64,000 bases of DNA, from positions 31,789 through 95,788 of the forward strand of contig JAJCZG010000122.1 in assembly GCA_029262475.1 (NCBI GenBank), read 5' to 3'. Below are positions 43,710 through 47,847 of the stretch, in pieces. The notes beneath the pieces were generated by a model. That model was not told the DNA's origin and did no database searches. It saw only the letters and a program-made list of their open reading frames with translations. The position numbers were made by a program, and so were the translations under genes. The first letter of the stretch is position 1, and each line of letters opens with the position of its first letter. This DNA is from Deltaproteobacteria bacterium (GTDB taxonomy: Bacteria; Desulfobacterota; GWC2-55-46; JAJCZF01).

Positions 43710-44948
43710 ATGGACAAGTATATGCTTACTAAAGAGAGATGTGACCTCTGTGGAAGCGGAGAGCTTAACCCCGTCTATACCCCGCCGGGAAGTAGGCGCG
43801 CTATGGTAGTATTTCTCTGCCGTAGATGCGGCTTAATGCAGAGCCTTCGTGGTAAAAAAGCCCATGATGATAGAGACGGTGTGACGCCGGGGTCCGAAGC
43901 GCGCTCGATGCAGGCGTCAAGCGGGGCTGACTGGGGCAATATACGCTACGGCAAGGGGTTTAGGACCGCCCCGGCGATAGAGCTCCTAAGTAAACATATA
44001 GATCTTTCTAAGATTAAATCGTGCATTGATATCGGCTCTAACCGTGGCTCATTTATTAAGGCTCTAAGGGAGATTAACGCTACGGTCGTGGTAGCCGCCG
44101 TTGAGCCTGACAGCCGGGTAACCGGCGACTACGCCGGGATGGATAACGTAAATACCATTAACACCTGCCTTGAAGACGCTCCGCTCGATGACGTAAGCTT
44201 CGACCTTGCCTACAGTTGTCACACCATAGAACACGTCGATAGCCCAACCGAGTCGCTTGCGGTCACCTGGAGGGTCTTAAAGCCTGGCGCTATACTTTAC
44301 ATCGAAGCCCCGAGGCTGGATCTTATAGAGGCGCCGGACTTTCTGGAAGAATTCTTCATAGACAAGCACAGCTTTCATTTCACTGAAAAAATACTCCTCA
44401 AATACCTCTATAATGCCGGTTTTGAAATTTTAAATCACGGGGAGACCGGAGATGGAGAGAATATTGCATTGGTAATGAGAAAGGTAGATAAGTGTGAGTC
44501 TTTACCCCCGGATGACCCTGGAGAAGTAAGCAGGGGAGAGGAGCTTACAAGGAAGTACAAAGCGAATCTCCTTAGAAACAGGGAGGCAATGAAAGGGGTT
44601 GGAGCCTTTATAAACTCTCTGACCCCGGTCGGGGGTAAAGAGAGTGGCAGAGTGGCAGTATGGGGCGCGGGACGCCTCTTCGATGCGCTCATCCGTTACG
44701 GCTCTCTTAAGGAAGGTGCGGTAAGCCTCCTTATTGATCGCTACCTGGTTAAGTACATGGACGAGACCAACGGTTTCAGGATTGTCCATCCTAACGCGGT
44801 ATCAGGGGGTTCGGCTGGGGCTGATATTGATACCGTCATTATCATGAGCAGGGCCTTTGAGGCTGAAATCAGGCAAGAGATAGAGGAAAACTTTCCTTCT
44901 GTCTCAAGAGTATACGCATTCTCCGCACTACTGGGGGGTGCGCTTTAG
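43710..44948 (+). CDS. Sugar C-methyltransferase-like protein: an N-terminal Cys4 zinc-ribbon, a class I SAM methyltransferase core and a C-terminal extension
   Basis: CDLCGSGEL...CRRCGLMQS zinc-ribbon, then the SAM motif CIDIGSNRGSFIKAL. Its three-part architecture and roughly 410-aa length resemble TylC3/NovU-type C-methyltransferases. Confidence 0.5.
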   Translation: MDKYMLTKERCDLCGSGELNPVYTPPGSRRAMVVFLCRRCGLMQSLRGKKAHDDRDGVTPGSEARSMQASSGADWGNIRYGKGFRTAPAIELLSKHIDLSKIKSCIDIGSNRGSFIKALREINATVVVAAVEPDSRVTGDYAGMDNVNTINTCLEDAPLDDVSFDLAYSCHTIEHVDSPTESLAVTWRVLKPGAILYIEAPRLDLIEAPDFLEEFFIDKHSFHFTEKILLKYLYNAGFEILNHGETGDGENIALVMRKVDKCESLPPDDPGEVSRGEELTRKYKANLLRNREAMKGVGAFINSLTPVGGKESGRVAVWGAGRLFDALIRYGSLKEGAVSLLIDRYLVKYMDETNGFRIVHPNAVSGGSAGADIDTVIIMSRAFEAEIRQEIEENFPSVSRVYAFSALLGGAL

Positions 44949-44959
44949 GAGTAAAGATT

Positions 44960-46402
44960 ATGAGAGTGCTACTTATGGAGGTGCCGTGGTATGTCTTCTT
45001 CCCTCAGGCCACACAGCCGGATGCGCCGCTCGGGTGTTCCTATATCGCGGCGGTCCTTGAAAAGGCCGGTCACGATGCGGTCATCTTTAACCCGGATTTA
45101 AAGGACGATGCCGCAGACGAGCTCGGCACAAATGATTTCAAAAACGAGATGGACGATTACAAAGTCTATCTCGAAACCATCAAGGGCGGCTCGCATAAGA
45201 TATGGAGCGAGATCATATCGCTAATAGAGAGTTTTCGTCCCGAGATGGTGGGGCTCACCGTACGGACCCCGGCCGTGGGGCTCGCCTACAGAACCGCCGA
45301 ACTTATTAAATCCATCGACCCTACTATTCATATTGTCCTTGGCGGGCCGCACCCGACGTGCTGTCCCGTGGAGGTCGCCTCCCATAAAGCCGTAGACGTA
45401 GTCGTCATAGGAGAGGGTGAGGATACCATCCTCGACCTCATAAGCTGCTATGAGGAGCGAAGAGCGCTCAATACGGTAAAAGGGATAGCCTACACCAGAG
45501 ACGAGCGTTTCATGAGGACCGCACCGAGGCCCCTTATCGAAGATCTCGACAGCATACCCTTTCCGGCAAAATACCTGATTTTAAATAAGGAGCGCATGCA
45601 CTCCGATAATTTCGCAAATATATTTGCTACTCGCGGGTGTTCGTATTCATGTACATTCTGTTCGAGCCATAATGTCTGGACTAAAAAAATTCGGTTCAGG
45701 AGCCCAGGTAACGTTTTAGCCGAGATGAAGTTCATGGAGGAACGCTACGGCTCCGAATTCTTCTCCTTTTCGGACGATAGCTTTACCGTTAATAAAAAAT
45801 GGGTACTCGAATTATGCGAGCTTATAAAGAAGACAAATTTCGGGCCGAATTTCAGATGGGTCTGTAATACCAAGAGTAATCTGATCGACGACGATATTGC
45901 CCGCGCCTTTAAAGAGGCCGGGTGCGCTGCCGTGGCCCTTGGAATTGAATCCGGGAGCGACCGTGTGCTTGAGCGCATGAAGAAGGGGACGACCGTCGAG
46001 AAGTCGAGAGACGCCGTCAAAATACTTAAAAAACATAATCTCCGTTTTACCGGGCAGTTCGTAATCGGCTTCCCGTGGGAGACGGAGGCTGAGATACTCA
46101 GGACCATAGAATTTATGAAGGAACTCGACCCCATGAGCGTAATGATGAGCATTGCCACACCACTTCCGGGTACCGAGCTATATAACGAGGCAATAAAACT
46201 CGGCCTAATTGACCCGGCCAATCTCGACTGGGCAAAGGTGACGACAAAGAACGACGGTATACTCTTTAACCCTGAAATACCTAAGGAGAGGGTTAAAGAG
46301 CTCGTAGCTCTTGCGAGGGACGAGGCCGGCGCACAGGAGGCTAAATGGGCCGCCGTCAGGTACGACTATAAATTAATCCGTGATATGCAGGTGTCAAATT
46401 GA
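44960..46402 (+). CDS. B12-binding radical SAM enzyme (class B)
   Basis: N-terminal cobalamin-binding Rossmann-like domain. CxxxCxxC motif (RGCSYSCTFCSS). Confidence 0.75.
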   Translation: MRVLLMEVPWYVFFPQATQPDAPLGCSYIAAVLEKAGHDAVIFNPDLKDDAADELGTNDFKNEMDDYKVYLETIKGGSHKIWSEIISLIESFRPEMVGLTVRTPAVGLAYRTAELIKSIDPTIHIVLGGPHPTCCPVEVASHKAVDVVVIGEGEDTILDLISCYEERRALNTVKGIAYTRDERFMRTAPRPLIEDLDSIPFPAKYLILNKERMHSDNFANIFATRGCSYSCTFCSSHNVWTKKIRFRSPGNVLAEMKFMEERYGSEFFSFSDDSFTVNKKWVLELCELIKKTNFGPNFRWVCNTKSNLIDDDIARAFKEAGCAAVALGIESGSDRVLERMKKGTTVEKSRDAVKILKKHNLRFTGQFVIGFPWETEAEILRTIEFMKELDPMSVMMSIATPLPGTELYNEAIKLGLIDPANLDWAKVTTKNDGILFNPEIPKERVKELVALARDEAGAQEAKWAAVRYDYKLIRDMQVSN

Positions 46403-47847
46403 GTGAAAAAAAGTTAAAGACACTGCTTATCTATCCGCCCTTCTTCGCATCCGTTGAGAGCGAGGGGTATGTTAGCGCCGGTGCGCCTCTGGGTATTACC
46501 ATGCTCGGGGCTGCTCTCCTGGAGGCAGGCCTGGAGGTAGAACTCCTCGACGCCTTTATAGAGGGTTTCGGCAACTCTTCTCCAATAGACGGTTCCGCCC
46601 AGATGAGAAGGGTCTCAAAAGGGTTTTGCAAGAGAAACAAGCTCGGTGAGCCCTTTAACGAGGGCTTTTATACCTTCGGCCTTAGCTTCGACGAGATAAA
46701 GGAAGAGATACGGAGGAGAAAGCCCGATATCGTCGGCGTCTCCGTTATATTTAGCTCCATCTACCCCGCCGGACGGCACATAGCGCGTCTGGCCAAGGAA
46801 GTAGACGAGGGGATCATCACCGTCGTCGGCGGCAACCACTCTACGGCTGTTCCCGGTGACGTGCTCGCCGAGGAGTTCGTTGACTACGCGGTGCTTGGAG
46901 AAGGGGAAAAGTCTTTCGTAGAGCTCGTTAAATGCTTATCCGAGGGGCAACACGCGAAGGCTGGACGTTTACCCGGAATTGCTTCGAGGGATTTTTCAGG
47001 CAAGACTGTAGTAAACCCTCAGGAGCTTATACCTGACCTTGACGCGCTTCCTTTTCCGGCTTTCGATCTCTTGCCGATAGAAAAACATTTTTCCGTCTCT
47101 GCCGAGGGGCGTACGATTAAGTTAATGACTAGCAGGGGGTGCACCTTTGACTGCTGTTTTTGCACGGTGCCGGGTAATAGCCAGAGGCGTTTCCGCGCGC
47201 GCTCGCCCGAAGACGTTCTGGCGGAGATTGACCTGTATGTGGAAAAATACCAGATAGAAGGCATCATGTTCGAAGACGACAACATGACGCTCAATCAGGA
47301 GAGGGCGCGAAAGATCTTTCAGATGCTGGGGGAGCGCGATTACGGCTTAAAACTCTTTGCCAGAAATTTCAGGGCTGATCTATTTGATCTCGATATGCTT
47401 AAGCTCATGAAGCGGGCCGGTTTTGAGACGATATGGATAACGCCGGAGAGCGGCAACCAGGATGTCCTCCTAAACCTTATCGGTAAGAATTTTAATCTGA
47501 AGGATGTTGACCGTTCTGTGGAGCTCATTAAGGAGGCGGGGCTTAGGCCTGCTGCGGCTTTCGTTATCGGCATACCGGGCGAGACGCGCTCCAATATTGA
47601 TGATACAATCCGCTACGCGTGGAAGCTTAAGAGAGACGGCGTAAAAGAGTTCTGGATATCCATTGCCACGCCAATTGTCGGTACGCGTATGTACGCCGAC
47701 TCTGTGAAGATGGGTCTCGTTAGCGGCATGGACCTTGAAAGATTCTCCTACCAGGAGGCCGGTATCACCACCGATAGCTTTAAGGGTGAGGAGATAGCGG
47801 AACTAAGAAAATCGCTTATGGCGGAACTTAACGACTATAAAAATTGA
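46399..47847 (+). CDS. Second B12-binding radical SAM enzyme (paralogue of the previous one)
   Basis: CxxxCxxC motif (SRGCTFDCCFCTV). N-terminal B12-binding-like domain. Overlapping start and stop with the preceding gene. Confidence 0.75.
   Translation: MSEKKLKTLLIYPPFFASVESEGYVSAGAPLGITMLGAALLEAGLEVELLDAFIEGFGNSSPIDGSAQMRRVSKGFCKRNKLGEPFNEGFYTFGLSFDEIKEEIRRRKPDIVGVSVIFSSIYPAGRHIARLAKEVDEGIITVVGGNHSTAVPGDVLAEEFVDYAVLGEGEKSFVELVKCLSEGQHAKAGRLPGIASRDFSGKTVVNPQELIPDLDALPFPAFDLLPIEKHFSVSAEGRTIKLMTSRGCTFDCCFCTVPGNSQRRFRARSPEDVLAEIDLYVEKYQIEGIMFEDDNMTLNQERARKIFQMLGERDYGLKLFARNFRADLFDLDMLKLMKRAGFETIWITPESGNQDVLLNLIGKNFNLKDVDRSVELIKEAGLRPAAAFVIGIPGETRSNIDDTIRYAWKLKRDGVKEFWISIATPIVGTRMYADSVKMGLVSGMDLERFSYQEAGITTDSFKGEEIAELRKSLMAELNDYKN

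Follow-up and report, generated by a model that had tools for sequence, protein, structure and literature searches.

A zinc-ribbon methyltransferase and a pair of B12-binding radical SAM proteins in a pseudaminic-acid-type flagellin glycosylation island

Introduction

Do a zinc-ribbon methyltransferase and two paralogous B12-binding radical S-adenosylmethionine (SAM) proteins, encoded by three consecutive genes, form one module for the carbon methylation (C-methylation) of a flagellin sugar? The question is raised by positions 43710-47847 of a 64,000-nucleotide (nt) stretch of Deltaproteobacteria bacterium DNA (GenBank assembly GCA_029262475.1, contig JAJCZG010000122.1, positions 31,789 to 95,788 of the forward strand; hereafter the window, meaning the whole stretch analysed). 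An earlier note on this DNA had proposed that they do, likening the methyltransferase to TylC3 and the radical SAM proteins to GenK and Fom3, and proposing a nonulosonate linked to cytidine monophosphate (CMP) as the substrate. The single module did not hold: the methyltransferase (ZnMT) sits in a cassette without radical SAM genes in 80 genome loci, and the radical SAM pair (rSAM A and rSAM B) is a separate unit, found also in non-flagellar glycan clusters. The occurrence of the cassette without the pair, and the recurrence of the pair across different glycan clusters, are the most useful new facts reported here.

Filament assembly, motility and recognition by the immune system are influenced by the nonulosonate sugars of flagellin, which are known to be decorated with N-acyl, amidino and O-methyl groups. 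There is ample precedent, taken singly, for flagellin glycosylation islands, for sugar C-methyltransferases and for class B methylases.

Results

The three genes

The three consecutive genes and the domain make-up claimed for them were confirmed, with exact agreement of the coordinates and with Pfam or motif matches for all three open reading frames (ORFs):

43710-44948, + strand: ZnMT, zinc-ribbon methyltransferase, 412 amino acids (aa), with four-cysteine zinc ribbon, class I SAM domain and C-terminal Rossmann-like domain
44960-46402, + strand: rSAM A, radical SAM protein with B12-binding domain, 480 aa, with CxxxCxxC motif (C227/C231/C234), and GGPH and GEGE motifs in the N-terminal Rossmann domain
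46399-47847, + strand: rSAM B, paralogous radical SAM protein with B12-binding domain, 482 aa, with TTG start, and FCTVPG after the cluster cysteines

ZnMT and rSAM A are separated by 11 nt, the stop of rSAM A and the start of rSAM B overlap by 4 nt, and 6 nt separate rSAM B from the next gene. The same gene order is found in the relatives L007 and L008, with proteins 79-94% identical to those of the window, and its conservation in L007 indicates real conserved genes and not chance ORFs. In the block from the second methyltransferase to the Maf gene (41833-55549), inter-gene gaps range from -14 to +40 nt, and the guanine-plus-cytosine content is uniform, both overall (GC) and at third codon positions (GC3). 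Recent horizontal insertion of the radical SAM pair was considered and rejected, as its GC and GC3 match those of the neighbouring genes and there is no compositional sign of it. A consensus scan of 35-55 kb gave no excess of promoter-like or terminator-like sites over shuffled sequence. A second in-frame ATG of ZnMT lies at 43722, equivalent to the methionine with which P0121, the closest homolog, starts; the true start of ZnMT may thus be four codons later than listed.

The seven-gene cassette and its distribution

ZnMT is the second gene of a cassette that spans positions 42833-53636 of the window, and is followed in it, after the radical SAM pair, by both halves of a transketolase. The order is sulfotransferase-like protein, ZnMT, N-terminal half of transketolase, C-terminal half of transketolase, short-chain dehydrogenase/reductase (SDR), ATP-grasp ligase and GH57-like protein. 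The members other than ZnMT are:

42833-43669, + strand: sulfotransferase-like protein (Pfam Sulfotransfer_3), first cassette gene, always directly upstream of ZnMT
47854-48720, + strand: transketolase, N-terminal half
48713-49651, + strand: transketolase, C-terminal half
49638-50372, + strand: FabG-like SDR
50365-51591, + strand: ATP-grasp ligase of the L-amino-acid-ligase type, with L-amino-acid ligases as best PDB relatives
51603-53636, + strand: GH57-like protein, 677 aa, with a weak N-terminal GH57-like domain

The split halves match one transketolase model at 310 + 284 bits. Sequence searches of the PDB with the GH57-like and sulfotransferase-like proteins gave marginal matches only.

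A scan of a genome collection with the ZnMT profile returned 80 loci, mostly from alphaproteobacterial metagenome-assembled genomes (MAGs) of Rhizomicrobium/Micropepsaceae; the window's own species was not among them. A tblastn matrix was computed over 82 loci without radical SAM genes (L009-L090), which are the 80 plus L009 and L010. In these loci the cassette adjoins NeuB, cytidylyltransferase, PseB, PseC and flagellin genes. The N-terminal half of transketolase directly follows ZnMT in 80 of the 81 loci having both genes, and all seven genes occur in the same order in 60 loci, the remaining loci being cut by contig ends. No sequence like rSAM A or rSAM B was detected in L009-L090, even at an expectation value (E) of 1e-3. 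The conservation of the cassette across loci without the pair thus makes ZnMT a constant member of a tailoring cassette of seven genes. The radical SAM pair is an accessory insertion at the junction of ZnMT and transketolase, present in a minority of lineages. No description of the seven-gene cassette was found in the literature searched.

The arrangement varies among loci that carry the pair. L002 has the pair in divergent orientation to the other cassette genes. Loci L004, L005 and L092 (metagenome) have a similar order plus extra radical SAM genes and genes for an aldo-keto reductase, an aminotransferase and an adenosine 5'-phosphosulfate (APS) kinase; for the protein of L004/L005, the source given is a Desulfobaccales bacterium MAG. 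The islands of L004 and L092 carry one or two B12 radical SAM genes beyond A and B, up to four per island, and these further genes encode B12-binding radical SAM proteins of 521 and 541 aa (L004:15670-17235; L092:4667-6292 and 15720-17285). A true APS kinase lies beside the sulfotransferase-like gene in the related islands (223 bits in L004), and this adjacency suggests a sulfated sugar.

The radical SAM pair as a conserved unit

The description of rSAM A and rSAM B as a paralogous pair was borne out: they are 31% identical over 387 aa (E 4e-51), and both domains plus CxxxCxxC are present in each. A-type orthologs are 41-61% identical and B-type orthologs 48-56% identical, and A is about 30% identical to B. 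Gene A is followed directly by gene B in the window and in L007, L002, L004 and L092, all of them flagellin/nonulosonate islands, and also in L003 and L091, where the pair lies beside glycosyltransferases, with no flagellar and no nonulosonate genes. As A-type and B-type orthologs are paired across loci, the duplication that gave rise to A and B predates the spread of the pair, and that both copies have been kept together points to a heteromer or to two consecutive steps that are both obligate. In most of its contexts, the pair has carbohydrate enzymes beside it.

At L091:14885-20078 (GCA_026129405.1), the pair stands by glycosyltransferases and by a set of genes reminiscent of the O-methyl-phosphoramidate pathway of Campylobacter. 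These encode a kinase of the PRK05849 family (857 bits), a family which we take to be of the Cj1418 type, a nucleotidyltransferase, a methyltransferase, a protein resembling APS kinase and one resembling gamma-glutamyl-CDP-amidate hydrolase (85 bits, short of the cut-off of 250). At L001:10001-14025 and L006:461-4485, A-type and B-type homologs (49-55% identical) are separated by one gene, and the B-type gene of L001 is split into a B12-binding ORF and a radical SAM ORF. Neighbours at these two loci include SOI and DUF2804 proteins and MtrC-like multihaem cytochromes, and neither flagellar genes nor an obvious glycan cluster surround the homologs there.

Relation of ZnMT to the TylC3 and TcaB9 group

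The ZnMT family is large and well conserved, with proteins of 390-415 aa. The class I SAM-methyltransferase domain of ZnMT covers residues 100-241 (Pfam Methyltransf_23, 1.8e-12). Upstream of it, C11, C14, C37 and C40 (CxxC...CxxC) are invariant in 25 homologs, and three short strands are modelled there; downstream of it are 130-170 residues, with a conserved C-terminal domain of about 130 aa that has a WGAGRLFD motif. Other invariants in the 25 members are a loop of the form SGADWGNxRYGKGFR, HTxEH, EExFxDKH..HF and the C-terminal WGAGRxFD.

An AlphaFold model of ZnMT (mean predicted local distance difference test, pLDDT, 84; predicted template modelling score, pTM, 0.84) was compared with the PDB using Foldseek. 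Ranks 1-18 were all TcaB9, MtmC or KijD1 (E 9e-16 to 2e-14), with template modelling (TM) scores of 0.55-0.63 across about 435 columns, that is, the whole chain. The next matches were generic methyltransferases, aligned over the SAM domain only (E about 1e-9, TM 0.34 on the query). The ZnMT family profile retrieved the same proteins from the PDB (TcaB9 1.5e-7, KijD1 1.6e-7, MtmC 1.4e-5), with alignments passing well beyond the SAM domain (query residues 28-325 with KijD1 and 87-365 with MtmC). Methyltransf_13 (zinc domain) and Methyltransf_14 (C-terminal domain), presumably the Pfam models typical of TylC3-type enzymes, were undetected in ZnMT even at E up to 10, only the generic Methyltransf_23/11/12/25 models matching, and were carried by 0 of 120 ZnMT homologs in precomputed annotation. 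NCBIfam likewise gave generic methyltransferase matches only.

With TcaB9 residues numbered after the mutant series listed in the PDB, a HMMER alignment placed His181 at ZnMT H175 and His225 at H220, both invariant, and Tyr222 at F216 and Glu224 at K219, which are invariant in the ZnMT family yet are different residues. We take these four TcaB9 residues to have active-site or sugar-binding roles. The likeness to TylC3 therefore stood in part: fold and both histidines agree with it, and the TylC3 domains of Pfam do not. By its model, ZnMT appears to fit the TylC3-like architecture and part of the active site as a remote relative, and not as a family member by curated models.

ZnMT resembles TcaB9, TylC3, MtmC and KijD1 in its length of about 410 aa, its four-cysteine zinc ribbon, the register of its SAM domain and its C-terminal Rossmann-like domain. 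It differs in the SGADWGNxRYGKGFR loop, which is extra to ZnMT, and in context, which is a flagellin nonulosonate island for ZnMT and antibiotic deoxysugar clusters for the others. The sugar carrier is deoxythymidine diphosphate (dTDP) for the others, and likely uridine diphosphate (UDP) or CMP for ZnMT. ZnMT probably methylates carbon, rather than oxygen or nitrogen. TcaB9-type enzymes act on nucleoside diphosphate (NDP)-4-keto-hexoses, which suggests the UDP-4-keto sugar produced by PseB as the substrate of ZnMT; ZnMT would then act before the nine-carbon sugar is formed.

Family placement of rSAM A and rSAM B

The Pfam B12-binding domain was matched by rSAM A (6.6e-21, 75 bits) and rSAM B (1.6e-19, 70 bits) well over the cut-off of 32, and the Radical_SAM domain at 5.8e-30 (105 bits) and 8.5e-25 (88 bits), respectively. 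C227, C231 and C234 of rSAM A are invariant in 30 homologs, and the cluster motif of rSAM B is CTFDCCFC. Judged from these domains, both proteins are assigned to class I of the B12 radical SAM enzymes as defined in a 2026 review (PMC12931638), with a canonical cobalamin domain.

The highest NCBIfam models for rSAM A (bits/cut-off) were BchE (206/481), HpnJ (193/578), ApyD (180/750), the MgmA type (158/360) and PhpK (155/600), and those for rSAM B were the Sden_1168 P-methyltransferase (181/575), then BchE (153 bits) and HpnJ (136 bits). None of the methylase families MgmA, PhpK, HpnR, KedN5, TsrM, RiPP (ribosomally synthesised and post-translationally modified peptide) C-methyltransferases and Sden_1168 was above cut-off for rSAM A or rSAM B, and no model named GenK or Fom3 was among the 25 NCBIfam matches listed for each of them. 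Phosphonate biosynthesis, prompted by the P-methyltransferase model, was considered for the island and rejected; the island has no phosphoenolpyruvate mutase, and its thiamine enzyme is a true split transketolase.

A single-sequence search of the PDB with rSAM A retrieved 9CCB (1.8e-27) and AprD4 (1.6e-25), and much more weakly CysS (4e-11), TokK (4e-7) and OxsB; the ranking for rSAM B was similar. The protein of entry 9CCB is MgmA, which C-methylates a glutamine of methyl-coenzyme M reductase in a cobalamin-dependent reaction (PMC11796369). With the family profile of rSAM A, AprD4 gave 173 bits over residues 185-450 and MgmA 159 bits over residues 80-405. The AlphaFold model of rSAM A (pLDDT 92.5) had MgmA as its best fold match (2.6e-26), followed by TsrM, AprD4, CysS, OxsB and TokK. 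Both the profile and the fold search thus again placed MgmA and AprD4 above TokK and CysS, with smaller gaps. For a resemblance to GenK and Fom3 specifically, judged through the proxies TokK and CysS, no support was found, the best solved relatives being MgmA and AprD4.

The N-terminal 300 residues of rSAM A, used alone as a profile, ranked TokK (72 bits), CysS (64), OxsB (59), MgmA (56) and TsrM (42), and their GGPH and GEGE motifs are common to the cobalamin domains of TokK, CysS, OxsB and MgmA. The N-terminal domain of AprD4 does not align with that of rSAM A; the alignment begins at about residue 185. Two residues after the third cluster cysteine there is Ser in rSAM A, Val in rSAM B and MgmA, and Trp in TokK (W215) and CysS.

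Likeness to known systems is accordingly divided. With MgmA (QCMT), the pair shares the short (about 450-480 aa) class-I layout of N-terminal cobalamin Rossmann domain, radical SAM barrel and small C-terminal domain. MgmA, at 23% identity, is the best structural match of rSAM A, and the FCTVPG of rSAM B resembles the FCQVPE of MgmA (FCxVP). The pair differs from MgmA in its scores against the TIGR04014 model (158 bits for A and 103 for B vs a cut-off of 360) and in its carbohydrate tailoring context, the substrate of MgmA being a protein. With GenK, Fom3, TokK and CysS it shares the proposed chemistry, methylation of unactivated sp3 carbons (of a sugar, in the case of GenK), and TokK and CysS are the best matches of the isolated cobalamin domain. 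TokK and CysS differ in length (about 650-680 aa), in their large extra C-terminal domains and in their far weaker full-length E-values. AprD4, the 1,2-diol dehydratase of apramycin, is the strongest profile match over the radical SAM core plus the C-terminal region and has a sugar substrate, but its NF033070 model gave only 101 (A) and 82 (B) bits vs a cut-off of 500. To our knowledge, AprD4 is reported not to use cobalamin. On sequence, the A/B subfamily appears to lie at much the same distance from a true C-methylase as from enzymes that do not methylate.

The flagellin nonulosonate island

The island around the locus appears to be a flagellin glycosylation island of the pseudaminic-acid (Pse) type. 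This agrees with the flagellin nonulosonate context proposed before, as PseB and PseC are above cut-offs and are accompanied by a synthase, a cytidylyltransferase, Maf and flagellins. Apart from the genes already given, it contains:

35544-36527, + strand: PseB, 531 bits vs the NCBIfam equivalog cut-off of 408
36520-37752, + strand: PseC, 472 bits vs the NCBIfam equivalog cut-off of 423
37749-38813, + strand: GFO/IDH/MocA oxidoreductase, between PseC and the synthase
38984-40054, + strand: NeuB/PseI-type nonulosonate synthase, NeuB 338 bits (cut-off 400) and PseI 297 bits (cut-off 340)
40041-40859, + strand: CMP-sugar cytidylyltransferase (Pfam CTP_transf_3)
40943-41926, + strand: PseG-like protein, weak, 89 bits vs a cut-off of 154
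41833-42840, + strand: second class I methyltransferase, adjoining the PseG-like gene
53633-55549, + strand: Maf-type flagellin glycosyltransferase, MptE-like plus Maf N-terminal domain
56429-57256, + strand: flagellin, presumed acceptor of the modified sugar, downstream of Maf
60371-61216, + strand: second flagellin, further downstream

No PseH-type N-acetyltransferase was found in the island (window 35544-56212), and the PseF model matched in it very weakly. The NeuB model gives the synthase a higher score than the PseI model does, and PseH is missing, so that the sugar may not be canonical Pse5Ac7Ac. The cytidylyltransferase gene lies upstream of ZnMT, as the earlier note had it, but is not adjacent, three genes standing between.

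The GFO/IDH/MocA gene was seen, among cassette loci, only in the window and L007. The weak best matches of its protein include UDP-N-acetylglucosamine 3-dehydrogenase and glycoside 3-dehydrogenases, and it could place an extra keto group on the sugar. The ORFs of the PseG-like protein and the second methyltransferase overlap by 94 nt as listed, and the methyltransferase homolog of L007 has 304 aa, so that the second methyltransferase probably starts later than listed. In L002, these two proteins are fused into one of 648 aa.

Discussion

Proposed pathway

Methylation in the tailoring of flagellin sugars, as proposed earlier for this locus, is reasonable. Taken as a whole, the reading favoured here, in which ZnMT C-methylates a sugar-nucleotide intermediate and the radical SAM pair are class B methylases of the sugar or its side chain, is evenly balanced between being right and wrong. 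Methylase chemistry of the pair, considered by itself, is somewhat more probable than that. No known group of B12 radical SAM enzymes is larger than the C-methylases (PMC12931638), and the estimate was set on that ground.

From the gene content, fold relations, conservation patterns and Pse context observed, we infer the substrates and the order of steps as follows. PseB and PseC would start a Pse-type pathway. The most likely reaction of ZnMT is methylation of a nucleotide-sugar intermediate by way of an enolate beside a keto group, by the TcaB9 route, the obvious candidate substrate being the UDP-4-keto-6-deoxy-N-acetylhexosamine made by PseB. As PseH is absent from the island, the cassette probably builds and attaches a substituent other than acetyl. 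The ATP-grasp ligase is a candidate for amide formation, by which a non-acetyl acyl or aminoacyl group would be attached, and transketolase and SDR may build the acyl group or add a two-carbon unit; that they add a two-carbon branch, as YerE and YerF do, is speculation. The sulfotransferase-like protein and the two class I methyltransferases would decorate the product. The radical SAM pair most likely act as class B methylases: one SAM would yield the 5'-deoxyadenosyl radical that abstracts a hydrogen, a second SAM would methylate cob(I)alamin, and methylcobalamin would then deliver the methyl group. Unactivated sp3 carbons of the sugar or side chain would thereby gain one or more methyl groups. 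The NeuB-type synthase and the cytidylyltransferase would complete and activate the sugar, for transfer to flagellin by Maf.

It is proposed tentatively, and at a strength short of the even balance given above, that the widespread cassette with its TcaB9-like methyltransferase builds a branched or unusually acylated Pse-type sugar, that a dedicated heteromeric B12 radical SAM pair C-methylates unactivated carbons of this sugar in some lineages, and that the pair is reused in other surface-glycan pathways. If so, it would be the first case of B12-dependent radical C-methylation in the glycosylation of bacterial proteins.

Several observations weigh against methylation as proposed for ZnMT and the pair. 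No curated family cut-off was reached by ZnMT, rSAM A or rSAM B. BchE and HpnJ, which are not methylases, are the top models for rSAM A and the second and third for rSAM B, and over the radical SAM core the score of AprD4, which does not methylate, is as high as that of MgmA. The structural criteria of PMC12931638 for class B methylases are that the lower-axial residue, and likewise the one standing between cluster and cobalamin, be hydrophobic. As far as the sequence alignment tells, the lower-axial position of rSAM A is R102, equivalent to R69 of TsrM and Q49 of MgmA, and is not hydrophobic as in TokK and Mmp10; that of rSAM B appears, by eye in the A/B alignment, to be Ile or Phe. Between ZnMT and TcaB9 the identity is only about 15%, and this distance, with the changes of Tyr222 to Phe and Glu224 to Lys, means that its chemistry or substrate may differ from that of TcaB9. 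Homologs of the pair also occur in L001 and L006 without obvious glycan context.

Alternative explanations

The same relatives can be read in favour of non-methylating radical chemistry on the sugar or side chain, such as an AprD4-like 1,2-diol dehydration that leads to deoxygenation, a ring contraction or rearrangement as by HpnJ or OxsB, or a BchE-like cyclisation, with a reductase of the island to finish the reaction. B12 radical SAM enzymes that do not methylate are documented (PMC12931638). AprD4, with its aminoglycoside sugar substrate, is the best profile match of rSAM A (173 bits) and third by fold, and BchE (206 bits) and HpnJ (193 bits) are its top NCBIfam models. These scores are, however, far under the cut-offs (101 and 82 of 500 for the AprD4 model, 206 of 481 for BchE), and the AprD4 N-terminal domain does not align, whereas the cobalamin domains of TokK, CysS and MgmA do; MgmA is, moreover, the best full-length structural match. 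The SDR belongs to the cassette without radical SAM genes and hence is no dedicated partner of the pair. Chemistry of this kind is considered unlikely. If MgmA is instead taken as the guide to the substrate and not only to the fold, the pair would modify a protein or peptide, for instance by C-methylating flagellin residues in the manner of MgmA and the RiPP C-methylases. MgmA, the closest solved relative, methylates a protein glutamine (PMC11796369), and ApyD and RiPP C-methyltransferase models are among the NCBIfam matches. Against this, the pair sits inside a sugar-tailoring cassette, adjoins elsewhere glycosyltransferases and the phosphoramidate-type sugar decoration set and not precursor peptides, and has no evident small precursor ORF near it, so that a protein substrate is judged highly improbable.

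The order of events proposed in the earlier note, in which both radical SAM proteins, and perhaps ZnMT, act late and C-methylate a completed CMP-nonulosonate, differs from the favoured reading in substrate and timing. Fom3 uses a CMP-linked substrate, the cytidylyltransferase gene lies upstream in the same gene block, and Lys219 of ZnMT in place of Glu224 of TcaB9 could, speculatively, suit an acidic substrate. The CMP-nonulosonate had been drawn solely from gene order, which is not pathway order and is not conserved (L002). The same pair occurs in clusters without nonulosonate genes (L003, L091), TcaB9-type enzymes use NDP-4-keto-hexoses, and specific likeness to the Fom3 or GenK type was not detected, the long-form methylases TokK and CysS being 16-20 orders of magnitude below MgmA and AprD4 in full-length searches. 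Late methylation of this kind is quite unlikely.

Comparison with known flagellin sugars and significance

Elaborate side chains on the sugar proposed here are plausible in view of the sugar-acid N-acyl and O-methyl nonulosonates of Treponema denticola and Campylobacter. Known flagellin nonulosonates include a di-O-methylglyceroyl-Pse in Campylobacter and a 2-methoxy-4,5,6-trihydroxyhexanoyl-nonulosonate in Treponema denticola (PMC6321876, PMC13439194). These glycans share with the proposed sugar a Pse-type core made by PseB, PseC and a NeuB-type synthase, unusual N-acyl and methyl groups, and linkage to flagellin, and they differ from it in that their methyl groups are O-linked. For the Campylobacter and Treponema glycans, the literature searched yielded no report of a transketolase, an ATP-grasp enzyme, a TcaB9-like enzyme or a B12 radical SAM enzyme. 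A full-text search of the literature also found no paper tying B12 radical SAM enzymes, a TcaB9-like methyltransferase or a transketolase/ATP-grasp cassette to flagellin or nonulosonate glycans, in agreement with the new class of flagellin-sugar modification suggested in the earlier note.

A C-methyltransferase akin to those of antibiotic deoxysugars, together with B12 radical SAM enzymes, would in such an island extend protein-linked sugar chemistry to carbon-carbon bond formation. The cassette without the pair in dozens of genomes, and with it in few, is a natural experiment, in which the contribution of the pair should show as a mass difference between flagellin glycopeptides. In view of their conserved pairing across unrelated glycan clusters, A and B stand out as a two-enzyme B12 radical SAM system worth biochemical study.

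Surroundings of the island

From about 30 to 61 kb of the window, every gene is on the + strand, and the region is flagellar. The upstream order is FlgN, FlgK, FlgL, CsrA, FliW, PseB, PseC, GFO/MocA oxidoreductase, synthase and cytidylyltransferase. The CsrA gene (79 aa, 34651-34890) lies directly 5' of FliW, with a 4-nt overlap, and precedes the glycosylation island; this arrangement is presumably a system of flagellin translation control. Downstream of Maf, the order is a 207-aa ORF, flagellin, FlaG, FliD, flagellin and FlaG. The 207-aa ORF (55589-56212), between Maf and the first flagellin, had no Pfam or NCBIfam match and was not found in the other loci compared. A multihaem c-type cytochrome at 62041-62961, with paired CXXCH and MtrC/MtrF-like domain matches, lies just downstream of the flagellar region; MtrC-like cytochromes are found near the A-type and B-type homologs of L001 and L006 as well.

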